From Candidatus Omnitrophota bacterium (GTDB taxonomy: Bacteria > Omnitrophota > Gorgyraeia > Zapsychrales > Zapsychraceae), in assembly GCA_003522725.1 (NCBI GenBank), contig DPIG01000078.1, positions 18,746 to 82,745 of the forward strand: DNA of 64,000 nucleotides, read 5' to 3'. Below, piece by piece: positions 5,772 through 30,066 of this stretch (position 1 is its first letter; every line of letters begins with the position of its first letter). Made by a program: the position numbers and the translations under genes. The notes beneath the pieces are model-generated. The model was given only the letters and a program-made list of their open reading frames with translations, was not told where the DNA came from and did no database searches.

Positions 5772-7162
5772 TGGTATACCTTGATGTATTCCCCGGCCGC
5801 GTGCTCCCACGAAAAATCCGCGGCCAACGCGTTTTGCCGCAAAGTGTAGAATTTCTCCTGGTCGCCGTAGATATCGATCGCCTGGCGCAGCGCCTGAAAA
5901 AAATCTTTTTTCGTGAAACGGTTGAACAAGATCCCGTCGCCTTTGGAAAGCGCGGCGTTGAAGGATTCGACCGTGTCCGCCAGCCCGCCGGTCTTAAAGG
6001 CGATCGGGACCGTGCCGTAGGCCATGCTGATCATCTGGCTCAAACCGCAGGGTTCGAAGCGCGAAGGCATCAAAAAGAAGTCCGCGCCCGCGTAAACCTG
6101 GTGCGCCAGAGAATCGTTAAATTCGAAATTGGCCCATATCTTCTTCGGGTATTTGTCCGTGTACGCCTTGATCTGTTTTTCGTACTGCCGCTCACCGGTC
6201 CCGAGCATGACGACCTGGACATCCAGGGCTAAAAACTGTTCCATCACCTCCAGGATCAGGTCCACGCCTTTTTGGTGGACCAGGCGGCTCACGAACGCGA
6301 ACAGCGGCGCGTCGTCGCGCTGCGGCAGTTTCAGCAGCTGCTGCAGTTTTGCCTTGTTGGCCGTTTTCCCGTGCATCAGCTCGTCTTTCGCGTATGTTCG
6401 CGCGATCTTTTGATCGGTCGCCGGGTTCCAGACATCGTGACTTATGCCGTTGATGATCCCCTCGACCGGCTCCCGCCGCGACTTCAACACACCCTCAAGC
6501 CCGCACCCGAACTCTTTGGTCAGGATTTCCTTCGCGTATTGTTGGCTGACCGTGGTCACCTTGTCGCTCGCGACGATCCCGCCTTTAAGGAAGTTGATCT
6601 GGCCGAAATATTCCAGATAATGCGCTGAATTGTACGTTGCCGGCAAGTTCAATTTCGGATAACGCTCCCGCGGGAACACGCCCTGGTGCGCCATGTTATG
6701 GATCGTCAAAATGGTCCTGGCCGATGCCAAAGAACTGTTTTTGTACTGATCTTTCAAATAGATCGGGATCAGCGCCGTGTGCCAGTCGTGGCAATGGATG
6801 ATGTCCGTTTTTTTCCGGAGTTGTTCAAGAGTCTTTAAGACCCTTGAACAAAAATACTGAAACCGTTCCAGATTGTCCGGATAATCGTCGCCGTTGTCCC
6901 CGTAGATACCGTCGCGTTTCCCGTAATAGTCGTGCTCGATGAAATAAACGTCCAGGTTCGGCGAAAGAACCGCGCGGGAAAGGTGCTTGTCCACCGGCGT
7001 GATGCCGAATTTTTTCGCGTCGATAAATTTATAACGCGGTAAAAGGATCGTGACTGAAACGTCCCTTTTGGCCAATGCCAGCGGCAATGAACCGCACACA
7101 TCGCCAAGTCCGCCCGTTTGAGCGAAGGGGACCGCCTCCACGGCGCAAAAAGTTATATGCAT
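5753..7162 (-). CDS. glgA: Glycogen/starch synthase (GT5, ADP-glucose type)
   Basis: N-terminal KTGGLGDV motif (AQTGGLGDVCGSLP), 469 aa. Confidence 0.85.
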   Translation of the reverse strand: MHITFCAVEAVPFAQTGGLGDVCGSLPLALAKRDVSVTILLPRYKFIDAKKFGITPVDKHLSRAVLSPNLDVYFIEHDYYGKRDGIYGDNGDDYPDNLERFQYFCSRVLKTLEQLRKKTDIIHCHDWHTALIPIYLKDQYKNSSLASARTILTIHNMAHQGVFPRERYPKLNLPATYNSAHYLEYFGQINFLKGGIVASDKVTTVSQQYAKEILTKEFGCGLEGVLKSRREPVEGIINGISHDVWNPATDQKIARTYAKDELMHGKTANKAKLQQLLKLPQRDDAPLFAFVSRLVHQKGVDLILEVMEQFLALDVQVVMLGTGERQYEKQIKAYTDKYPKKIWANFEFNDSLAHQVYAGADFFLMPSRFEPCGLSQMISMAYGTVPIAFKTGGLADTVESFNAALSKGDGILFNRFTKKDFFQALRQAIDIYGDQEKFYTLRQNALAADFSWEHAAGEYIKVYQCLLSA

Positions 7163-11231: not shown

Positions 11232-12107
11232 TTACCTCTTCGCCTCCTGCTGGACCTTGAACGCTTCAATACCGTTACGCATGAGCATGACGACGGTGAC
11301 CGGGCCCACCCCGCCGGGCACCGGCGTGATAAATGACGCCCTCCGGCCCGCTTTTTCAAATTCGATGTCGCCTGTGATTCCGGAGCCCACTTTATTGATC
11401 CCCACGTCAATGACAATGGCGCCTTCCTTGATCCAGTCCCCTTTGATGAGCCCCGCTTTCCCCACCGCGACGACCAGGACATCCGCGCTCCCCACGTGCT
11501 CGACGAGCCGTCCGGCCTGGCTGGTGGCCAGATGACACACGGTGACCGTGGCGTCCTGCGCGAGCAACAGCAAACTCAAAGGTTTGCCGACGATCTCGCT
11601 GTGGCCGACCACGACCGCTTCTTTCCCGCGCAGTTTGACGCCCGTGGAGCGGATAAGTTCCATGACCGCGGCAGGGGTGCAGGGGATGATGCGCGTTTGG
11701 CCCAGCATCATCTTGCCGATATTGGTGACGTTGATGCCTTCGAGGTCCTTGGACGGGGCCACATAGTTGGCCACGGCGCGGTAATCGATCTGGTCGGGCA
11801 CGGGTTTGTGGATCATGATGCCGTGCACGCCGGAATCGCTATCGAGTTCCTTGATGACGCTGATCAGTTTGGCCTGGGTCGTGTCCCCCGAAAGGATCTT
11901 CAGTTCATATTTGATGCCGATATATTCGGCCGTCTTTTTCTGGGAATTGGCGTAGGCGCAGGAACCTGGGTCGGAGCCCACCATCACGTTGACCAGGTGC
12001 GGCACGCCGCCAAAGGTTTCTTTGAGCCGCGCCACTTCCTTTTTGAGCTCGTCCTTGAGCTTTTTGGCCAGGGCCGTACCGTCAAGGATGTGCGCGGTGG
12101 CGTTCAT
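11232..12107 (-). CDS. folD: Bifunctional methylene-THF dehydrogenase / methenyl-THF cyclohydrolase
   Basis: ILDGTALAKK..., motifs (VGSDPGSCAYANSQKK, PCTPAAVMELI, VVVGHSEIVGKP), 291 aa. Confidence 0.92.
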   Translation of the reverse strand: MNATAHILDGTALAKKLKDELKKEVARLKETFGGVPHLVNVMVGSDPGSCAYANSQKKTAEYIGIKYELKILSGDTTQAKLISVIKELDSDSGVHGIMIHKPVPDQIDYRAVANYVAPSKDLEGINVTNIGKMMLGQTRIIPCTPAAVMELIRSTGVKLRGKEAVVVGHSEIVGKPLSLLLLAQDATVTVCHLATSQAGRLVEHVGSADVLVVAVGKAGLIKGDWIKEGAIVIDVGINKVGSGITGDIEFEKAGRRASFITPVPGGVGPVTVVMLMRNGIEAFKVQQEAKR

Positions 12108-12589
12108 TGGTTGATCTCCACGTTGAGCTTCGCCGAATTAAACGCGGCGAGCAAAAGTTCCAGCGCGACCTTCACGTCCGAAACAAGATATTTGTTGCCG
12201 TAGCGAACTAACGTCGGCGCCAATTGCACGGCTTTGTAACATAGTTTGCATGCTTCCAGAGGGACTTCCCTTGCCTTGCGCCGGGCCGCGTTACGCTTCG
12301 CGGGCGCGGCCTTGCGCGTTTTGACAACGTTCAAATACGCCCGCGCGTCCAGGTCAACGAGCGCCAAAAAACGTTTGCGCAATCGCTCGCTCGTCTTGAG
12401 ACTTGCCTTTATCTTTTGTTCATTGGCACGCGATGAGGTCTTACCGAGCGAATAATTCGCGACCATGGACAGAAGCGCCGCCCCAAGCGCCGCCGTCACC
12501 GCCGCCGCCGACCCACCCCCCGGCGCGGGGACCTTGAGCGAGAGCACGCGCGTGTATTCACTTAAACTGTAATTTCGAAAGGGTTTCAT
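12104..12589 (-). CDS. Cyclodeaminase/cyclohydrolase family protein (FTCD C-terminal-like; FchA-type methenyl-THF cyclohydrolase)
   Basis: GGGSAAAVTAALGAALLSMVANYS motif typical of the formiminotransferase-cyclodeaminase C-domain. Overlaps folD by 4 nt (ATGA). Confidence 0.7.
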   Translation of the reverse strand: MKPFRNYSLSEYTRVLSLKVPAPGGGSAAAVTAALGAALLSMVANYSLGKTSSRANEQKIKASLKTSERLRKRFLALVDLDARAYLNVVKTRKAAPAKRNAARRKAREVPLEACKLCYKAVQLAPTLVRYGNKYLVSDVKVALELLLAAFNSAKLNVEINQ

Positions 12590-12597
12590 GGCTGTAA

Positions 12598-12674
12598 GGT
12601 TATCCGATTGTCCGGAAATCCGTGACTGGGTAATCCGGATACCCGGGTATCCGGTTCCTCGGATCCCCGGAACC
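12598..12674. repeat. Array A of degenerate 8-10 bp direct repeats (NNATCCGG type)
   Basis: GGTTATCCG ATTGTCCGG AAATCCG...GTAATCCGG ATACCCGG GTATCCGG TTCCTCGG ATCCCCGG, ending in the inverted GGTTCC...GGAACC. It lies between fchA and the Abi gene. Confidence 0.6.
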
Positions 12675-12716
12675 TGTCAATTTTCACATGCGCTCATCAT
12701 ATCCTAAACACGACGG

Positions 12717-13487
12717 TTATTCAACTTCAAAGGCGTTTTTATCGTGTATCTTTTTCTTCCGAGATTCCCATGTTTGAAAAAGGAATGTAGCCATCGTCCC
12801 GGAAAGATTAACTGCAAGTTCCGCATGCCGTGGTGCTGGCCGGCTCCCTGATACCCCTTTGCCATGCGCATCACTATGTCGGTTTCGTAAAGCGCCTAAT
12901 CCTTCAACGACACTCTGGCAACCACCCAATATCTGTTTAAAAATTTGCTCTGTATGTTGGCTCGGTGAAAGATTAAGCTGTCTGACGGTCAAAGTGTAAA
13001 GTTTGGGGAGGTCGACATCATTGCTATATGTTATGCCTGACTCATCAAGTATATGCTTGCATGCAGATTCAAGCAGCGTGCGAGCTGTTGTAATCGCACC
13101 CTCAGGGTCAGCAGCTCTGCGTTCTAATGCTTTTTGCCAAATTTCTTGAATGTAGGTTGAATCCAAAGTCTGCACAGTTGCGGAAATTGAAGCGTCGCTT
13201 GGCGTGCGTGAATCGGTTTCTAGTGTAGTCAGGAGCGGATCAAACTCTTGCTGTAAGTACCCTCTTCGTTGAGCATAGGTTGCGAATTTCGGCTGAATGA
13301 AACTCCAGAATTCAGAAAGGTTGCGACATGTGTGGACAAAACGAGGTAGTAGCTTTGCAATACGCGGAGATGTAATAAGTTCACGACGTAAATTTTTGTA
13401 TTCCAAGTCGTCACCGTTACCACCGGTCGCATGTGAAACTAGCATTATCTTCAGTGATTCAACTTGATTAATTTTTTCTTCATTCAT
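12717..13487 (-). CDS. Abortive-infection-like protein with a C-terminal HEPN (Abi_C-type) domain
   Basis: The C-terminus (TLLESACKHILDE...LPKLY...LGALRNRHSDAHGKG...RHAELAVNLSGTMATFL) fits the Abi_C/HEPN pattern, with an Rx4H motif (RHSDAH). The gene is visibly AT-rich compared with its neighbours. 256 aa. Confidence 0.65.
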   Translation of the reverse strand: MNEEKINQVESLKIMLVSHATGGNGDDLEYKNLRRELITSPRIAKLLPRFVHTCRNLSEFWSFIQPKFATYAQRRGYLQQEFDPLLTTLETDSRTPSDASISATVQTLDSTYIQEIWQKALERRAADPEGAITTARTLLESACKHILDESGITYSNDVDLPKLYTLTVRQLNLSPSQHTEQIFKQILGGCQSVVEGLGALRNRHSDAHGKGVSGSRPAPRHAELAVNLSGTMATFLFQTWESRKKKIHDKNAFEVE

Positions 13488-13490
13488 GTC

Positions 13491-13597
13491 GTATTATTCC
13501 GCGTTATTTCGGGCGTCTTTGTATTATTCCGGGGACGCGTACTCTCTCTGCGTTATTCCGGCGTTATTCCGCAGGTTATTCCGAGGTTATTCCGGGG
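13491..13597. repeat. Array B: seven copies of the (G)TTATTCCG(G) repeat, the last four in tandem with an 11-12 bp period
   Basis: TATTATTCCGCG GTTATTTCGGG...TATTATTCCGGGG...CGTTATTCCGGCG TTATTCCGCAG GTTATTCCGAG GTTATTCCGGGG. It lies immediately 5' of the Abi gene start. Confidence 0.7.
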
Positions 13598-13710
13598 CCA
13601 CATGACGTAACCTTAATTATTGCCGATTGTGTGTCTTTGCAGACGCTTTAGCTAAGTTCCTGGCTTTGCGTTAATTATAAAACAAATCTTTCACTTCGTG
13701 TTGAGTATTT

Positions 13711-13745
13711 CGGCCCCGCTGTAAGTGGCCCCCGGGCCGCTTTTT
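13711..13745 (+). terminator. Possible plus-strand intrinsic terminator with no plus-strand gene upstream
   Basis: CGGCCC...GGGCCG stem (6 bp, GC-rich, alternative pairings possible) followed by CTTTTTG. The minus-strand complement has no U-tract. Confidence 0.3.
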
Positions 13746-13806
13746 GAATTCGTGATTTTAACATAATTTGAATTCTCGCCGTTCGGCAAGAATTGACTTT
13801 ACAGCT

Positions 13807-14028
13807 TTAACGATAGCTGGCGTGTGTGCCGATATCGTAATAAATCACCTCGTGGGCGTTGATGAAACGAAACAGCACACGGTACTCCCGATTAATGGAA
13901 TACGCCCAATAGTCTTTCAGCGGTCCCTTAAGCTTGTGCGTTCGCAGGGGCGGTGTAAAAGCGTTGTCCCGGAATAACTGGTCTTTCTTGATGGCCAGGT
14001 CTTGAATATGTGTTGGGAGTTTCTGCAC
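13807..14028 (-). CDS. RelE/HigB/YafQ-like mRNA-interferase toxin, N-terminally short, no cognate antitoxin evident
   Basis: LKGPLKDYWAYSINREYRVLFRFINAHEVIYYDIGTHASY matches the conserved C-terminal half of HigB/YafQ-type toxins. The only start is a GTG and the frame closes 6 codons upstream. No HTH antitoxin ORF in the 300 bp downstream. Confidence 0.5.
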   Translation of the reverse strand: MQKLPTHIQDLAIKKDQLFRDNAFTPPLRTHKLKGPLKDYWAYSINREYRVLFRFINAHEVIYYDIGTHASYR

Positions 14029-14075
14029 AATTTGAACTCCCGATAGTCAGCGGAAATCTGGATTTCTAAGGTCTT

Positions 14076-14327
14076 CTAATAGACATCTTTACGATGGCCG
14101 ACGTGCAGAATGACCACCTTTTTATCCCGGTCATGGATATCGTAAATAACGCGGTAACGCCCGACACGGATCCTCCAGCCGGGACGGGCGATCAGCTTCT
14201 TGCTGCCGTGAGGGCGCGGGCTGGAAGAAAGTTTTTCGATATGCTGGCATACACGCTGATAATCAACGGCAGGCAGTCCGGCGAGCTCTTTTTGCGCGCG
14301 GCGAAGGATAAAAACGCTGTAGTTCAT
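14076..14327 (-). CDS. relE: Type II toxin, RelE/ParE family
   Basis: IRVGRYRVIYDIHDRDKKVVILHVGHRKDVY C-terminal signature. 83 aa. Overlaps the upstream antitoxin by ATGA. Confidence 0.8.
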   Translation of the reverse strand: MNYSVFILRRAQKELAGLPAVDYQRVCQHIEKLSSSPRPHGSKKLIARPGWRIRVGRYRVIYDIHDRDKKVVILHVGHRKDVY

Positions 14328-14527
14328 TTGCGGGAGCGTTCAATTTCTTTTCTGGCTTGGGCGAACGGGATGGATTCCTCGCCGGACGCCTTGGCCGCGT
14401 CATAAGCTCGGATGGACTCGAGCTCTTCAGCCTGCCTGATGAGTCGGCGATATTCCCTGTTGGTCAGGACGACCCCCACCTGGCGGCCATGGGAATCAAC
14501 AACATGATTCTCTTTTATTTTAATCAT
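14324..14527 (-). CDS. Type II antitoxin, Phd/YefM-like
   Basis: MIKIKENHVVDSHGRQVGVVLTNREYRRLIRQAEELESIRAYDAAK... Start placed at ATG 14525-14527, preceded by AAGGAG. The ORF-track TTG start at 14554 is less likely. Confidence 0.7.
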   Translation of the reverse strand: MIKIKENHVVDSHGRQVGVVLTNREYRRLIRQAEELESIRAYDAAKASGEESIPFAQARKEIERSRK

Positions 14528-14636
14528 GGGCACTCCTTTTTTCAAAAGTTTCAAAGGTCATCCCTTTGGTGAATGACTCGACTTTTTCAATGGCATCGAC
14601 AATATCGGCGACATAATCCCGGTATTGACGGATCAT
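14520..14636 (-). pseudogene. Remnant (38 codons) of a HepT/HEPN toxin gene, truncated where the Phd start codon begins
   Basis: Minus-strand translation MIRQYRDYVADIVDAIEKVESFTKGMTFETFEKRSAHD* matches the conserved N-terminus of HepT (DUF86) toxins. Its ATG overlaps the MNT stop (ATGA), the typical MNT-HepT coupling. The frame is cut by a TAA that overlaps the Phd ATG. Confidence 0.6.
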
Positions 14637-14926
14637 ACGTAAACAACCTCACGCATGATGTATTTACCGATAGTAGGCTTTAACGAACCTTTCATGACGA
14701 GATCAACGCGTTTTTTCAATATGGCGCTAAGGCGGTTTTCCGTCCGGACATAATCGAAAAGGCCGGGGGTCTGGCTGAATTCAACGAGGATGTCGACGTC
14801 ACTGTTCTTTTTTTGCTTTCCACGCACGTAGGAACCAAAGACACCCAGCATCTTGACCTTGAATTGTCGCTTCAGGGCGGATTTGTTCTGTTTTAAAACT
14901 TGTTTGATTTTATCCAGTTCGCTCAT
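14633..14926 (-). CDS. Minimal nucleotidyltransferase (MNT) antitoxin of a HepT/MNT pair
   Basis: GVFGSYVRGKQKKNSDVDILVEF is the GS...DxD pol-beta-type NTase motif. About 97 aa. Alternative TTG start at 14932. Confidence 0.75.
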   Translation of the reverse strand: MSELDKIKQVLKQNKSALKRQFKVKMLGVFGSYVRGKQKKNSDVDILVEFSQTPGLFDYVRTENRLSAILKKRVDLVMKGSLKPTIGKYIMREVVYV

Positions 14927-14992
14927 AGTCAAAGTATATCATAATTATCTGCCTGCCGATGAAAGCATTTTTACGTTTTTCGGGCTGTTTTT

Positions 14993-15014
14993 GGTTATTC
15001 CGTGGTTATTCCGG
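14993..15014. repeat. Array C: two tandem copies of GGTTATTCCG(G)
   Basis: GGTTATTCCGT GGTTATTCCGGG, immediately 5' of the MNT gene and adjoining the 15013-15054 inverted repeat. Confidence 0.6.
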
Positions 15015-15054
15015 GACACAATACTTAACTCACAGCAATTAAGTATCGTGTCCC
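15013..15054. repeat. 16-bp near-perfect inverted repeat spanning the symporter stop codon
   Basis: GGGACACAATACTTAA-(10 nt)-TTAAGTATCGTGTCCC, one mismatch. No U-tract on either strand. A related half-site lies at 22793-22815. Confidence 0.6.
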
Positions 15055-16295
15055 TCTTGCGGGAGCCATTTCGGCCCGTTCATGACGCGCGCGACGAGCA
15101 TGCCGCTGACGTTATCGCCCACCACGTTGACCATGGTCGCCGGCGGGTCAACGAGCGTGCCCACCATGGTGATAATGGGCATGGCCTCGATGGGAAAACC
15201 AAAGAGCGTGATGATCAAAAGCTCCCCCAGCATACCGCCGGAAGGGATGCCGCTGATGACCGTGCCGCATAAAAGGGCCACGGCCACAACCGAGACCAGC
15301 GTTTCAACGCCGGAAAAGGGCATGCCGAAGATCCCGAACAATAACGCCATCTTCACGACCGCGGCCAGGCTCGAGCCGTCGCTGTGCACCGAGGCGCCGA
15401 TATTGACCACGACCTCCCGCACGTCTTCGGGGATGCCGATTCTTTTCGCGGCCTCAAGGTTGACCGGCAAGGTCGCCAGCCCGCTCCCCGTCCCCCACGC
15501 GGTCACCGCGGCCGGAAGGATATTGGACCAAAGGAGCCGGATGCCCCGGACCCCTCCCGCCAGCCACGCGTAGAAAGAAAATCCGATAAAAAAATACGCC
15601 AGCGCCAGGGGATAATAGAGCGCGATCACACGGACATACGACCCTAAAAGCTGCGGGCCGAAGACGCCGACCAGATACGCGAAGTACGCGCCCAGGCCGA
15701 CGGGCGCGTAGAGCATGACGTAGCCGATGGCCCTGGTCATCACGTCGTTGCCCGCCGCGAGAAATTGCGCGAAGGGTTTCCCCCTCGCCCCAACGGCCGA
15801 GGCCGCCAGCCCGATCAGGAACGCGAACAGGATCAGGGCGAACATGTTCTGTTTGGAGAATAATTCCGTAAAGTCCGTGACCGTGAGGGTGCGCACGATC
15901 TGCTCGCCGATATCGACCTTTTCGGCCTGGACGGGCTGGTTGAAAGCGATCCGGATGCCTTCCGCGGGCGGATAGAACTTGACACCGACGATCATCACGG
16001 CCGCGGCAATGATCCCGGTCACCACAAATATCAGGACCATCCACCCCATGATCTTGCCCAGGCGTTTGACGTCCGTCATTTGGGCCACGGTCGAGGAAAT
16101 GGCGAAGAAGACCAGCGGTACGACGATCGTGAACAACAGATTAAGGAAGATGTCCCCCAGAGGCTTGAGGACGGCGGCGTTCGATTTCATCAGCGCGCCG
16201 ACCAACGAGCCGACGGCGATGGATGCGATAAGAAGAATCGAGAAACGATAGGATTTCAGAAAGGTTGGTTTATTATTCATACGTATGGCCGCCAT
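15039..16295 (-). CDS. Dicarboxylate/amino acid:cation symporter (DAACS/GltP-SstT family)
   Basis: Polytopic protein of 418 aa with the family hallmarks (GASVHSDGSSL..., GIPSGGMLG..., re-entrant loop motifs). Alternative start at Met6. Confidence 0.8.
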   Translation of the reverse strand: MAAIRMNNKPTFLKSYRFSILLIASIAVGSLVGALMKSNAAVLKPLGDIFLNLLFTIVVPLVFFAISSTVAQMTDVKRLGKIMGWMVLIFVVTGIIAAAVMIVGVKFYPPAEGIRIAFNQPVQAEKVDIGEQIVRTLTVTDFTELFSKQNMFALILFAFLIGLAASAVGARGKPFAQFLAAGNDVMTRAIGYVMLYAPVGLGAYFAYLVGVFGPQLLGSYVRVIALYYPLALAYFFIGFSFYAWLAGGVRGIRLLWSNILPAAVTAWGTGSGLATLPVNLEAAKRIGIPEDVREVVVNIGASVHSDGSSLAAVVKMALLFGIFGMPFSGVETLVSVVAVALLCGTVISGIPSGGMLGELLIITLFGFPIEAMPIITMVGTLVDPPATMVNVVGDNVSGMLVARVMNGPKWLPQEGHDT

Positions 16296-22818: not shown

Positions 22819-25800
22819 TTATTGCAGGATCCTGGTATAGTTCGCTTCATGGTCTTTGACCCATATGCCGTTGACCTTGGACCAGATGGACGCGTAAAGC
22901 GGTGTGCCATCCAGCGGGACGGTCACGGTGACGGAAGTATTTGATCCCGCATTGATATTGCCGACGTTTTTCGTGTTGGGAGCGGTCCCCAGCCACAGAT
23001 AATACTGCGCTGCCGCCGGATTCGTCGTCCAGATGAACGTTACGTTCGCCGTATCGATCTGGCTCCCCGGCGCAGGTGAAATGATCCGGGCCCGTTGGTC
23101 GGCGCGGGTATAGCTCACTTCATGATCTTTGACCCATATGCCGTTGACCCTGGACCAGATGGACGCGTAAAGCGGTGTGCCATCCAAGGGGACGTTTACA
23201 ATTACCGAAGTATTCATTCCGGCATTGATGTTACCGACGTTGTTGATGCTTGGAGCAGTACCCAACCACAAATAATACTGTGTTGCCGCGGGATTTGCCG
23301 TCCAGGCAAACATCACGCTAGTGGTCGTGATCTGACTGCCGGGTACGGGCGAAGTGATCAGGGCTTTTTTGTTACTGCGCGTATAACTTGCTTCATGGTC
23401 TTTGACCCATATGCCGTTGACCCTGGACCAGATGGACGCGTAAAGCGGTGTGCCATCCAGCGGGACGGTCACGGTGACGGAAGTATTTGATCCCGCATTG
23501 ATATTGCCGACGTTTTTCGTGTTGGGAGCGGTCCCCAGCCACAGATAATACTGCGCTGCCGCCGGATTCGTCGTCCAGATGAATGTTACGTTCGCCGTAT
23601 CGATCTGGCTCCCCGGCGCGGGCGACATGATCCGGGCCCGTTGGTCGGCGCGGGTATAGCTCACTTCATGGTCTTTGGCCCATTTCCCTTTGACTTTGGA
23701 CCAGATGGACGCGTAAAGCGGTGTGCCATCCAGCGGGACGGTCACGGTGACGGAAGTATTTGATCCCGCGTTGATATTGCCGACGTTTTTTGTGTTGGGA
23801 GCGGTCCCCAGCCACAGGTAATATTGCGTCGCGTCGGGATTCATTGTCCAGCGGAAGGTCACGTTCGCCGTATCGATCTGACTGCCCGGCGTGGGCGACA
23901 TGATCCGGGCCGGCCCTTTAACCGAAAGATATCCCTCGAGGATCCCCGTTAAGGAAATATTAGGTGAATGATGGGCCGCGGTATCGTATTTGCCGAATTT
24001 TTGTTCCAGCTGGACTTGGGAATCCGTGCTGACGTCGGGCGGCGCGTCATTGTAGACGTCATGCATAAACAAACCCCACTCGGTGGGGTATTGCGTCTGG
24101 TGCGCCTTGTACGTCCACATCGCCCAGTGCCAGTTTTTATTGCGGAATGTCGCCAAAAAATAGTCCCAGTTGGCCCGCTGATTGAAGCCGTTGAATTCGC
24201 CGATGAAGACCGGCACGTTGAAGATTTCCTGCGCGGAATTGTTCACCTTGCCGTCGAGGTACGCGCGGTGTCCGGGGACGTCTTTAATGCCGATGATATT
24301 TCCAAAACTGTCGAATTCGAACCCGTAATAATGGAATTCGTAGACGACATTTTGCCAGCCGTAAACGTTGGGGTGCGGAAGGGTGTCCCAGTCGAATTCG
24401 CTGGGGACGCTTTCCATGACAATGATGTGCCTGGGGTCAACCGCGCGGATCGCCTGATAGAGCGCGTTATAAAATGGCCAAAGGCCGGCGGGCCCGGTGA
24501 AGGTCGGGTCGTGGTCCAAGGCGCCAAAAGGTTCATTCAAAAGATCATAACCCATGACATTGGTCAAAAAAGCGTAACGTGACGCGACCGCCGTCCAGAA
24601 TTCGATGGTCTTGGCGCGGTGCGCGGCGCCGTCAGGGCCGTTCTCGAAAAGTTTGTTGTAGTTCGCGCGGCCGGAATGCGCCTCGTCGCTTTGCGCCCCC
24701 GGCGCGCCGTGAAGGTCCAACAGGACGTAGATCCCGCGGTTGGCGCATTGCTCGATGATCCAATCCAGTTTGGTGAAGTTTGTGAACGCGCCGGTTGAAT
24801 CTTGCAGGGCTTCATAATAAATCGGCAGGCGGACCAGATTGACGCCCATACGCATCAAGTGGTCCAGATCGATCGTTTGGATATACGCGTCCTGATACGC
24901 GTTAAGAAGATTTGCCGACCCGAACCTGCGGACCAATTCCGCGCGGATGCTGAAGTCGTCATCATCGTTTGGGTTCGCGGCGGTGTACCCGCCTCCGATC
25001 CCGGTAAATTCCGGCTCGATCAATAACAGGTTCCCCAGATTGACGCCCCCCAGGAGGATCGGATCACCAAGGCCATCCATTTCCAGGATAGCCATGCCGT
25101 CCGTCTTGAGATACCCGCCTTCGAGGGAAGTGACCGGCAATGCCGGGCTCCAACCGGTCGAATCGAAGATGTCCGTTAATCCGGTCCTTAAATGCGCGCG
25201 GATGCGGTACCATGAGCCTTCTTCATAATAACTCGCGGCTGGCAGCAAAGCGTGCGGGCCGCGGTATATTTCCGTCCAGGGCCCGTTACGGGACGGGCCT
25301 TTCTGGATCTCATACTGGTCGGCGAACTCGAGCGGTTCCCACTGCAATCCGGCAAAGGCGAACCTTGGATGGCGAAGCAAGACCGGAGGACGGAGCGAAT
25401 AAACAACCTCGCTCCATCGCGAAATATAGGGGATCGGGTCAGTGGAGGTGACGTCCTCTTTCCAGCGGACCCGCAGCCACCGTGGGGACAAAGGTTTGAT
25501 AAAAGAAGAAAGGCCCGTCCCCTCGTAAATGGTCGTCCATGGTCCCTGCGGTCCCGCGACGCTTTCCTGCAATTCGTACGCGCCCGCGCCGGCAATCGCG
25601 TCCCACGCCGCGGCCACTCCCTGGGCCGATTCTGAAACAACGACGGTCGGCGGTGTTTTAATGGCCCTGATATCATCGATGTAGTAAACTCCGGGCCAGA
25701 AAAACTGGAACTGGATCTTGTTGATGCCGCTGAGGTCCAGGCCGGCGGGTAATCCGCTAAAGGGAACGGCCAGTTGTGTCCATTGCCCGCGCACCGCCCG

Positions 25801-26706: not shown

Positions 26707-27075
26707 TTATTCAATCTCAAACGCGTTTCTGATGAGTTCGACCGTAAAGCCGCCGGCGTCATCGGGGATCACGGCCACCGCGTCAAAACGCGCTTCGACG
26801 TCTTCGGTGTCTTGTCGCGCCAGATAACCCCGCGCCGCGCGGATGATCTTCTTTTGTTTGACCGGAGAAATCGACTCAAAAGGATGCCCGTGCCAGTCTT
26901 GGGTACGGGTGCGTACTTCAATGAAACACAGCGTTTTACCATCCTGGGCGATGATATCGATCTCGCCGAAGGCGTTGCGATAGTTGCGCGCAATGACACG
27001 GTAGCCTTCTTTTTTCAGCCGCGCCACCGCTTGTTCTTCCCCGAGCTTTCCAAGATCAAGGCGTTCTTGCGTCAT
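26707..27075 (-). CDS. yraN: YraN-family endonuclease (UPF0102)
   Basis: Start at ATG 27073-27075 (MTQERLDLGKLGEEQAVARLKKEGYRVIARNYR...GEIDIIA). 123 aa. Overlaps the rnhB stop. Confidence 0.7.
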   Translation of the reverse strand: MTQERLDLGKLGEEQAVARLKKEGYRVIARNYRNAFGEIDIIAQDGKTLCFIEVRTRTQDWHGHPFESISPVKQKKIIRAARGYLARQDTEDVEARFDAVAVIPDDAGGFTVELIRNAFEIE

Positions 27076-27698
27076 AGCTGGCACTGAAAACTCCGGCGCT
27101 GGATCAACGACGGGCCCAGGCGCCGGATCGCTTCTTTGTGTCCTTCGGTCGCGTAGCCTTTGTGCCGGTTGAACCCATATCCCGGGTAAACCCGGTGGTA
27201 AATGTTCAAGATCCGGTCTCGGACCACTTTCGCGACGACCGAAGCGCACATAATCGAAAGAACGCGTTCATCGCCTTTGATGATCGTTTTGTAATGGTAC
27301 GGCAGGTCAGAGCGGAAGCAGTTGCCATCGATAAGAAGGCATACGGTCTTCGCAAAATTCTTTTGGCTGGTCATCACCGGAGAAAGCCACGCGATGAGAT
27401 TGACAACGGCGTTATGCATCGCGAAAAATGTGGCCTGGAGGATATTGTTTTGGTCGATGACGTTTTCACTGATGATCCCGACGCCGACGTAGGAGCGCTT
27501 GTAAATTTCATGAAAAGCTTCTTCGCGCTGGGCGTGGGAGAGCTTTTTGGAATCCCGGACGGGAACGGAAAAGTCAGCTCGACGCAAGGCAACGGCGGCC
27601 GCGACCACCGGGCCGGCCAGCGGGCCCCGGCCCGCCTCATCGACACCGATGACGAGGTTAAAACCAGCTCTTCTGGTCTTATCCTCAATGGCTAGCAT
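27072..27698 (-). CDS. rnhB: Ribonuclease HII
   Basis: VIGVDEAGRGPLAGPVVAAAV active-site region. 208 aa. Confidence 0.9.
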   Translation of the reverse strand: MLAIEDKTRRAGFNLVIGVDEAGRGPLAGPVVAAAVALRRADFSVPVRDSKKLSHAQREEAFHEIYKRSYVGVGIISENVIDQNNILQATFFAMHNAVVNLIAWLSPVMTSQKNFAKTVCLLIDGNCFRSDLPYHYKTIIKGDERVLSIMCASVVAKVVRDRILNIYHRVYPGYGFNRHKGYATEGHKEAIRRLGPSLIQRRSFQCQL

Positions 27699-27704
27699 AT
27701 TTTA

Positions 27705-27768
27705 ATACGTATTTCGTATCTCGTCGCTCGTATTTCGCAAAAACGAAATACGAGATACGAGATACAAA
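27705..27768. repeat. REP-like palindromic element, copy A (CGTATCTCG/CGAGATACG units), between rplS and rnhB
   Basis: CGTATTTCGTATCTCGTCGCTCGTATTTCG-caaaaa-CGAAATACGAGATACGAGATAC gives an imperfect hairpin of about 22 bp. It shares the core GTATCTCGTCGCTCGTAT with copy B. Confidence 0.65.

Positions 27769-28181: not shown

Positions 28182-30066
<1,885 letters not shown>

Follow-up and report, generated by a model that had tools for sequence, protein, structure and literature searches.

The window analysed here is a 64-kb stretch of DNA from a groundwater Candidatus Omnitrophota population, and our subject is an AT-rich islet of about 2.4 kb within it, flanked by an SDF symporter gene and the fchA–folD operon, with all its genes on the minus strand. 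From the letters of the sequence, an original prediction had placed a cluster of toxin–antitoxin (TA) and abortive-infection (Abi) genes between folD–fchA and the symporter gene, namely an Abi_C gene, a HigB-like toxin fragment, a RelE/Phd pair and a HepT remnant with its MNT partner. Hidden Markov model (HMM) searches and PADLOC uphold this gene list, the HEPN/Abi_C and TA assignments on which it depends and the position of the islet between its flanks. The following genes, given with their lengths in amino acids (aa) or codons, are recognized:

11232–12107, minus strand: FolD, flank (Pfam/HMM)
12104–12589, minus strand: FTCD_C/FchA protein, flank (Pfam/HMM)
12717–13487, minus strand: AbiJ-family protein, 256 aa (Abi_C, 7e-24; PADLOC AbiJ, 3.6e-23)
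13807–14028, minus strand: HigB/RelE-like toxin fragment, 73 codons (HMM score below cut-off; tblastn to the toxin of the relative L022)
14076–14327, minus strand: RelE/ParE-superfamily toxin, 83 aa, intact (Pfam ParE_toxin, 38.5 bits)
14324–14527, minus strand: Phd/YefM-like antitoxin, 67 aa (Pfam PhdYeFM, 19.4 bits, below cut-off)
14520–14636, minus strand: HepT remnant, open reading frame (ORF) of 38 codons (tblastn to the HepT of the relative L260)
14633–14926, minus strand: MNT/MntA-type nucleotidyltransferase, 97 aa, intact, orphan (NTP_transf_2, 2.5e-16)
15039–16295, minus strand: SDF symporter, flank (Pfam/HMM)

The AT-richness of these genes relative to the flanking housekeeping genes, also part of the prediction, is borne out by two measures, and the islet is compositionally foreign rather than uniform with its surroundings. 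Specifically, positions 12590–15038 have a GC content of 0.468 against 0.540 for the window, the minimum of all 2.45-kb segments (0.16th percentile), and GC at third codon positions (GC3) is 0.37 for AbiJ and 0.56 for MNT against 0.67–0.80 for FchA, FolD and SDF. The RelE/Phd pair is near host composition (0.53; 0.60 when set beside the GC3 of the flanks). Another low-GC region, at 44.5–46 kb, consists of the housekeeping genes dxr, cdsA and uppS, so that low GC alone is not diagnostic.

A sharp fall in GC relative to the flanks is also what a chimeric assembly or a binning artefact, joining the DNA of different organisms, might produce, and we give that explanation practically no credence. 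The whole 4.3-kb stretch from the symporter to folD, flanks included, is 100% identical in seven contigs from independent assemblies of different samples (ENA, JGI, Logan, NCBI), which excludes an assembly chimera, and the junction sequences (promoters, hairpins) are common to related species. Twelve shorter contigs are 98.9–100% identical to the window over the portions that they cover, and the same locus is present in contigs MHFZ01000031 and DOFQ01000095. Across the 19 contigs and the parts covered, array lengths are constant and the few differences all lie at contig ends. As had been remarked, no integrase or transposase gene is called in the Pfam tables within ~10 kb on either side.

Cargo replacement upstream of fchA–folD

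Related Omnitrophota species were found by a FolD scan (FolD identity 68–93%), and five of them carry differing cargo upstream of the same fchA–folD operon:

L020, FolD 93%: SnoaL/DUF4440 gene
L021, FolD 91%: DUF5674, a 108-aa gene, ORF6N and a 279-aa gene
L022, FolD 90%: a 78-aa antitoxin, a complete 90-aa HigB-like toxin and DUF6998
L024, FolD 72%: SDF and cyclophilin
L023 and L258 (one metagenome-assembled genome (MAG), JACRHP01), FolD 71%: SDF, MNT (93% identical), DUF4160/DUF2442, DUF5674 and two small genes

The gene set of the window is thus not kept at the corresponding junctions of its relatives, and the reading as an acquired islet withstands the comparison. Together with the composition, this supports an islet that was horizontally assembled at a variable junction and is foreign to its host. 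Synteny also differs on the left side: YraN and RNase HII adjoin the islet in L021 (4865–5856) and L022 (27–398) and lie 12 kb off in the window (26707–27698), which indicates that the hotspot coincides with larger rearrangements.

On the fchA side, two features delimit the exchanged DNA:

12696–12724, minus strand: fchA–folD promoter TTGAAT-17-TATGAT (promoter scan)
12590–12680, minus strand: array 1, CCGGATAC-type units with an 8-bp period, partly palindromic (Tandem Repeats Finder (TRF), period 8)

The promoter hexamers and their spacing are also readable in L020–L023, and the AbiJ-like ORF of the window terminates within the −35 box. Array 1 lies between the −10 box and the fchA ATG, that is, in the 5′ leader. 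Three arrays of one short repeat had been thought to bracket the segment; two arrays do share a unit, CCGGAATAAC, but the fchA-side array is made of the different 8-bp unit CCGGATAC and is conserved in relatives. It is kept upstream of fchA in L020 (with one unit more) and in L021 despite other cargo there, and is absent from L022 and L023, where the −10 box almost adjoins the fchA ATG. Since array 1 is kept behind different upstream genes, it belongs to fchA and not to the islet border.

The fchA–folD leader of about 100 nt of 8-bp repeats occurs in three species (window 12590–12700, L020 826–941, L021 9416–9522). It matches no Rfam family and shows no covariation among these three sequences. 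An Rfam search over 12000–15500 returned one sub-threshold chance match only, so that no known riboswitch or small RNA accounts for the arrays or for the fchA leader. The CTTTGAAGTTGAATAA stretch shared by L021 and L023 was considered as a remnant of the AbiJ 3′ end and rejected, being the conserved fchA −35 region.

We therefore read the segment, with a probability of roughly 70%, as a mosaic of selfish and defence genes that accumulated and partly decayed at a lineage-specific replacement hotspot upstream of the fchA–folD promoter. Such a hotspot shares with defence islands and other variable loci its different cargo at a conserved chromosomal position, its foreign composition and its enrichment in TA and Abi genes. 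It differs from them in being very small (1–4 kb) and without an integrase or tRNA anchor, and in carrying genes unrelated to defence as well (SnoaL, cyclophilin, DUF5674).

The toxin–antitoxin genes and their breakpoints

The history of the islet is most legible in its TA genes, for which two further features are needed:

14930–14980, minus strand: conserved promoter region (94% identity with the sequence preceding the L022 antitoxin; kept in L258)
14021–14042, minus strand: junction at which the EL1 fragment GAGTTCAAATTGTG is fused to toxin codon 19 (window against L022)

The MNT protein (NTP_transf_2, 60.3 bits; PADLOC PDC-S09) scores 50.9 bits with the NCBIfam MntA model, under its 60-bit equivalog cut-off, and has a 93% identical orthologue that also follows SDF in L258. 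In the 51-bp region upstream of it, to which conservation lends a putative promoter function, a TATACT box stops 6 nt short of the MNT ATG, a position that suggests a leaderless message. The promoter scan also returned an internal match at 14545–14517, with its −10 box downstream of the Phd ATG, which is probably due to chance.

As in type VII HepT–MntA modules, MNT carries the GS...RG...DxD motif and its stop overlaps the HepT start, an arrangement found in the intact pair of L260, where a full 112-aa HepT follows an MNT 84% identical to that of the window. In contrast to such modules, the HepT of the window ends after codon 33 of 112. Codons 1–33 (14538–14636) are 73% identical to the L260 HepT (tblastn 2e-13; Pfam HepT-like E=0.066, model positions 2–22 of 120), after which the frame reads five foreign codons before its stop. 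With the catalytic region lost, the module cannot work as a TA pair, and MNT is left an orphan. No other piece of the remaining HepT was found in the window by tblastn. In L258, MNT is followed by only ~4 HepT codons, and HepT has thus been cut at two different points in these two genomes.

In the window, HepT homology stops exactly where the ribosome-binding site (RBS) of Phd (AAGGAG) starts. The pair that begins here resembles type II RelE/ParE–Phd/YefM modules in having the antitoxin first, a 4-nt overlap of its stop with the RelE start (ATGA), an 83-aa toxin of RelE fold and a small antitoxin with an acidic C-terminus. The toxin is well assigned (PF05016 ParE_toxin, 38.5 bits against a cut-off of 23), and its relatives in the Protein Data Bank (PDB), namely 2khe, 1wmi and Rv2866, are all RelE-type (best 5.5e-8). 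The pair differs from typical type II modules in that no promoter or operator of its own is recognizable, the cassette starting at an RBS inside the HepT remnant and apparently being read from the MNT promoter, and in the weak family assignment of its antitoxin. We consider that this pair is probably still functional, as judged from its intact genes.

The HigB-like fragment scores just under the cut-offs of its family (TIGR02385, 27.1 bits against 27.9) and is RelE/HigB/YafQ-like. It corresponds to residues 19–90 of the 90-aa toxin of L022, with 89% identity (tblastn), and keeps the C-terminal residues; the complete L022 toxin matches HigB structures in a PDB sequence search. Unlike HigB/RelE toxins that follow an upstream antitoxin, as in L022, the copy in the window lacks its first 18 codons and its antitoxin, and its GTG start was created at the junction. 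The fusion of the EL1 fragment to codon 19 sits at a C(A/G)GAA microhomology, as seen by comparison of the window with L022. No remnant of the 78-aa L022 antitoxin was found in the window by tblastn, and a tblastn search of the window for the cargo genes of relatives gave nothing beyond the HepT and toxin fragments.

These breakpoints can be accommodated by a simple scheme. The TA genes would make up a single chimeric and closely packed transcription unit, transcribed from the conserved and leaderless-looking promoter in the order MNT, HepT′ (33 codons), Phd, RelE and HigB-like toxin′ (codons 19–90). The ancestral row would have been an MNT–HepT pair plus an antitoxin/HigB-like toxin pair, in which the DNA from HepT codon 34 through toxin codon 18 gave way to a Phd–RelE cassette carrying an EL element at its 3′ end. 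One replacement of this kind would have lost one antitoxin, disarmed two toxins and orphaned MNT; the antitoxin would be lost only along with the head of its toxin, as survival demands. A single event is the most parsimonious reading of the breakpoints, and it is probable, from these junctions, that one cassette disarmed HepT and the HigB-like toxin together.

Several points weigh against so simple an account. The 73-codon toxin fragment is an open frame with a possible RBS (GGGAG) and a dN/dS of 0.10 against L022, similar to FolD and FchA, and may retain some residual function. MNT likewise has a dN/dS of 0.06 against L258, similar to the same two genes, which could reflect a retained function (for example, neutralizing HepT paralogues elsewhere) or merely a recent truncation of HepT. 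For both genes, the low ratios mean either that the truncations are recent or that the ORFs still matter. The 67-aa antitoxin is weakly Phd/YefM-like (PF02604, 19.4 bits against a cut-off of 29.8) and has no NCBIfam match and no PDB sequence match. Finally, the activity proposed for AbiJ, RelE and Phd follows from intact ORFs and family membership only.

Another TA-rich islet is found in the related Omnitrophota MAG L260 (3285–6768), between a pantothenate kinase gene and groES. It contains a Gp49/HigB-like gene with an HTH gene, RES, the intact MNT–HepT pair and DUF1016.

The AbiJ-family gene

The AbiJ-like gene is the one credible defence gene of the islet and, by its domain content, a member of the known AbiJ/Abi_C HEPN family. 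Its product has a helical N-terminal domain (residues ~1–105) and a C-terminal HEPN domain (RNRHSDAHG), with an Abi_C match (PF14355) of 84.2 bits against a cut-off of 24 over residues 161–237. The C-terminal domain shows the HEPN four-helix fold, and the R-x4-6-H motif is present as R203-HSDA-H208, within a RNxHSDAHG stretch that is invariant in an alignment of 25 homologues. The likeness to lactococcal AbiJ is confined to this part (Abi_C/HEPN domain, R-x4-H motif and HEPN fold): the PADLOC AbiJ model is covered only at positions 135–276 of 281, and the N-terminal half, unlike that of lactococcal AbiJ, is matched neither by Pfam AbiJ_NTD3-5 nor by the lactococcal AbiJ model, so that similarity does not extend over the full length. 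Foldseek against the PDB gave nothing significant, and a PDB sequence search with the AbiJ-like protein nothing usable.

The N-terminal domain recurs elsewhere. Residues 1–105 match 975 cluster representatives, and among ten long representatives that were scanned, eight carry TIR (two of the Pycsar/CAP12 type) and one a protein kinase. A variable N-terminal domain common to TIR and kinase effectors, and homologues in restriction–modification (R-M) operons, are traits shared with the AbiJ/Abi_C family, and the recurrence fits the AbiJ-NTD sensor/effector scheme, in which homologues in R-M operons were also described (PMC3710099). According to a 2026 review, lactococcal AbiJ has no known mechanism (PMC13064643). 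By analogy with the family, the N-terminal domain most likely senses infection or silences the C-terminal HEPN RNase, which, once freed, would cut RNA and abort the infection. The protein is full length and probably still functions as a single-gene abortive-infection unit, to judge from its intact reading frame.

Proteins of this family are ~245 aa long and 70–81% identical across phyla (source names include Rhodocyclaceae and Pelodictyon), and homologues with 48–57% identity are also found on proteobacterial plasmids. Homologues in the examined contexts directly follow hsdS or an hsdS 3′ remnant, or stand beside Fic, and the type I R-M islands that hold them also carry TIR, SMODS/S_4TM and AbiEi genes. 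A conserved HsdS C-terminal end (...RDLLLPRLLSG...) always precedes the homologue (L251 3821–4938, L254 3903–4004, L256 upstream of 4001), and in L251 such remnants stand on both sides of it. These remnants suggest that the gene moves via recombination at conserved regions of hsdS. The gene of the window differs from these in being solitary, beside a folate-metabolism operon and without R-M genes.

The borders of the AbiJ-like gene in the window are unusually tight. At its 3′ end, ten additional C-terminal residues come from the frame entering the fchA −35 box, which is host DNA, and at its 5′ end a repeat array (array 2, below) reaches up to the ATG, ending 5 nt before it in gene orientation. 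From this read-through and the position of the array it follows that the imported piece is almost exactly the AbiJ ORF. We thus envisage that a donor of lower GC supplied the ORF, which entered between the fchA −35 box and a CCGGAATAAC array in an almost exact ORF-for-ORF insertion.

It had been proposed that this part of the window might hold an uncharacterised anti-phage arrangement. In its strongest form, the genes would be one co-adapted, undescribed system in which, for example, the orphan MNT modifies the AbiJ HEPN domain and RelE/Phd serves as a trigger module. All the genes are on one strand and tightly packed, MNT enzymes AMPylate HEPN toxins in type VII systems (PMC7641770) and here a HEPN protein lies 1.1 kb downstream of an MNT that is, at a dN/dS of 0.06, under strong purifying selection. 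However, L258/L023 keep MNT without AbiJ, and L022 keeps the HigB-like pair without MNT or AbiJ; that neighbours in the window are not neighbours in relatives argues against co-adaptation. Nor is any MNT called adjacent to the AbiJ homologues in the contexts examined, where they follow hsdS or lie beside Fic. Moreover, two components are obviously truncated, and a ~320-bp intergenic stretch with a terminator-like hairpin and arrays parts AbiJ from the TA operon. We regard a co-adapted system as very unlikely, and the proposal of an uncharacterised arrangement is not sustained: all the genes fall into families already described, HepT and the HigB-like toxin, two of the four modules, are truncated, MNT stands as an orphan, and in relatives the genes are not found together.

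Repeat arrays and hairpins at cassette borders

Three repetitive elements lie between or beside the cargo genes:

13493–13629, minus strand: array 2, seven CCGGAATAAC-type units (four exact, ~11-bp period) behind the conserved element GGCAATAATTAAGGTTACGTCATGTGGCCCC (TRF, motif search)
13727–13794, minus strand: EL1–EL2 intergenic hairpin (GCCGAACGGC hairpin, GAATTCAAATT..., ACGAATTCAAAAAGCGGCC-loop-GGCC; comparison with relatives)
14994–15054, minus strand: array 3, a hairpin with a 17-bp stem (GGGACACGATACTTAAT...GTTAAGTATTGTGTCCC) followed by two GGAATAAC units (fold z = −4.4)

Arrays 2 and 3 (13493–13600 and 14994–15013) have the common unit CCGGAATAAC with an 11-bp period. The exact form GTTATTCCG occurs seven times in 64 kb, always between 13552 and 15013, against a chance expectation of ~0.5 (our estimate, 2x64000/4^9). 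The array 3 region is 95% identical to L021 5948–5990; array 2 has no hairpin like that of array 3. In L021, four tandem GGAAATAAGGGGACAC units (5890–5950) stand on the opposite side of the hairpin that is shared with window positions 15012–15054, from which it appears that the elements vary between species in unit sequence and copy number. Both the GGCAATAATTAAGGTTACGTCATGTGGCCCC element and an array precede a different gene in L022, and in L023 a GGAATAAC-type array alone precedes yet another gene.

One to three copies of EL1–EL2 lie between cargo genes in L021, L022, L023 and L258, and no further copy is found elsewhere in the window. The element looks terminator-like on the plus strand, with a fold z of only −1.6. 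In the window and its close relatives, the CCGGAATAAC arrays and EL1–EL2 occur only within islets and at cassette borders, and in our scheme these arrays and hairpins would mark the borders, with nothing implied as to their causing the exchange. Separately, a 14-nt array core, TGTCCCGGAATAAC, lies antisense to codons DQLFRDN of the HigB-like toxin gene, both in the window (13965–13978, plus strand) and in L022 (2409–2422), with a chance expectation, by our estimate, of ~5e-4 per 64 kb.

Elements that recur between ORFs of uniform orientation invite comparison with integrons, and one might suppose that the islet is a cassette array of the CALIN type (cluster of attC sites lacking integron-integrases), exchanged by an integrase encoded elsewhere. 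As in integron arrays and CALINs, the cargo is in the same orientation, mostly promoterless and bounded tightly at the ORFs, the EL1–EL2 hairpin follows several cassettes in four related genomes, and the genes are TA and defence genes, of which chromosomal integrons are known stores (bioRxiv 10.1101/2024.07.02.601686). Unlike in integrons, inspection of the inter-cassette elements by eye, with no dedicated attC model, found no R''/R' core sites (RYYYAAC ... GTTRRRY) and no long imperfect attC palindrome, and neither intI nor any other tyrosine recombinase gene is called within ~10 kb on either side. The breakpoints, furthermore, are intragenic (HepT codon 33, toxin codon 19) and involve a microhomology, as is typical of illegitimate rather than site-specific recombination. 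On these grounds the attC reading was rejected, and we give integron-mediated exchange very little weight.

Another parallel comes from single-strand transposases. When metagenomes were scanned for three GGAATAAC units, most matches proved to be unrelated microsatellites and coding repeats, and a viral scan for the units gave nothing relevant; the informative subset of the metagenome matches shares the prefix of the window, as TGTCCCC(GGAATAAC)n. In L182 and L128 the array adjoins a Y1_Tnp gene, IS200-like and of the type of the REP-associated tyrosine transposases (RAYT; REP, repetitive extragenic palindromic), and so does, in L104, an oppositely oriented GTTATTCC array that follows a GACCCC core. 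In other bacteria (L182, L245, L248, L249), TGTCCC(C)GGAAT with tandem units flanks Y1_Tnp genes in inverted orientation. Specifically, in L245, L248 and L249 the Y1_Tnp gene lies between the inverted cores GGGGACAGTATAC ... GTATACTGTCCCC or a variant, with short tandem GGAAT-type units continuing outward from the cores in L245 and L248 and a weaker extension in L249 (AGAAATTGAAATTC); L247 has the core GGGGACAGTATAC upstream only, without tandem units. The RAYT-like Y1 family has >6800 members, some of them named REP-associated tyrosine transposase. The Y1 genes with GTATACTGTCCCC-type inverted repeats (L182 6499–7400; L245, L248 and L249 ~1430–2220) are mostly on contigs of ~1–2 kb, as expected because repeats break assemblies.

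The window stretch AGTATTGTGTCCC-GGAATAAC-CAC-GGAATAAC has the same architecture as these gene flanks, and we consider it most likely, from this resemblance, that the CCGGAATAAC arrays and their neighbouring hairpins are REP-like satellites akin to those found beside RAYT-type Y1 genes, a lead of moderate strength. As in REP/REPIN–RAYT systems, a short conserved core stands beside a hairpin (the 17-bp stem at array 3), and the inverted core flanks single Y1_Tnp genes in other bacteria. The element of the window differs in having tandem 8–11-bp units, not a single palindrome with a GTAG head. Two observations speak against the link: no RAYT gene was found either in the window or across ~1.3 Mb of Omnitrophota loci, none being seen in this organism, and the arrays are confined to the islet (13.5–15.05 kb in 64 kb), unlike classical REPs, which are dispersed.

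The arrays might instead be regulatory, either as direct-repeat transcription factor sites spaced by one helical turn or as a protein-binding array in the 5′ untranslated region that controls the downstream cargo gene. The ~11-bp period would suit this, as would the constant copy number in the population and the position of the arrays, which end 5–20 nt before the start of AbiJ in the window, DUF6998 in L022, a 93-aa protein in L023 and p195 in L021, and lie ~60 nt upstream of MNT. We hold regulation to be possible, though on balance unlikely, given that the core and units flank Y1 genes in inverted orientation in unrelated bacteria, for which terminal repeats are the simpler explanation, that the islet holds no candidate regulator and that the motif is absent from every other promoter in 64 kb.

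To go beyond REP-like satellites and give the arrays a causal role in cassette exchange is speculation. In its full form, TGTCCC(C)-(GGAATAAC)n with its hairpins would be an undescribed REP-like satellite, made of tandem octamers, of a very large RAYT-like Y1 family of Planctomycetota and related phyla, serving in Omnitrophota as landing or recombination sites at which promoterless TA and defence ORFs are swapped upstream of fchA. We treat this as a long shot.

Other repeats in the window should be mentioned. Inverted tandem-heptamer arrays with the potential for long hairpins, (AGTGGTC)4/(CTGACCA)4 and (CGTATCT)n/(ACGAGAT)n, are found at 325–394, 27708–27765 and 29994–30062, the latter two lying, by our reading of the ORFs, between housekeeping genes (RNase HII and L19, and tgt and queA, respectively); they are perhaps a further class of REP-like or terminator elements in this genome. 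A tandem repeat at 22834–23911 (273 bp, 3.9 copies, 81% identity) presumably encodes a repeated protein domain.

As a defence locus, the islet adds little beyond another AbiJ-family gene, another RelE/Phd pair and some wreckage. If the arrays are indeed satellites of a Y1 transposase and mediate the exchange, which is only a lead, they would represent a new route of cassette mobility, and the locus a cassette hotspot linked to a single-strand transposase and functionally analogous to an integron. The value of the islet lies in two other respects. First, it offers a clean natural example of how TA modules may be retired, through what appears to be a single cassette replacement. Second, it reveals, in an uncultivated Omnitrophota lineage, a tight hotspot without a recombinase at which cargo is exchanged with the precision of single ORFs.

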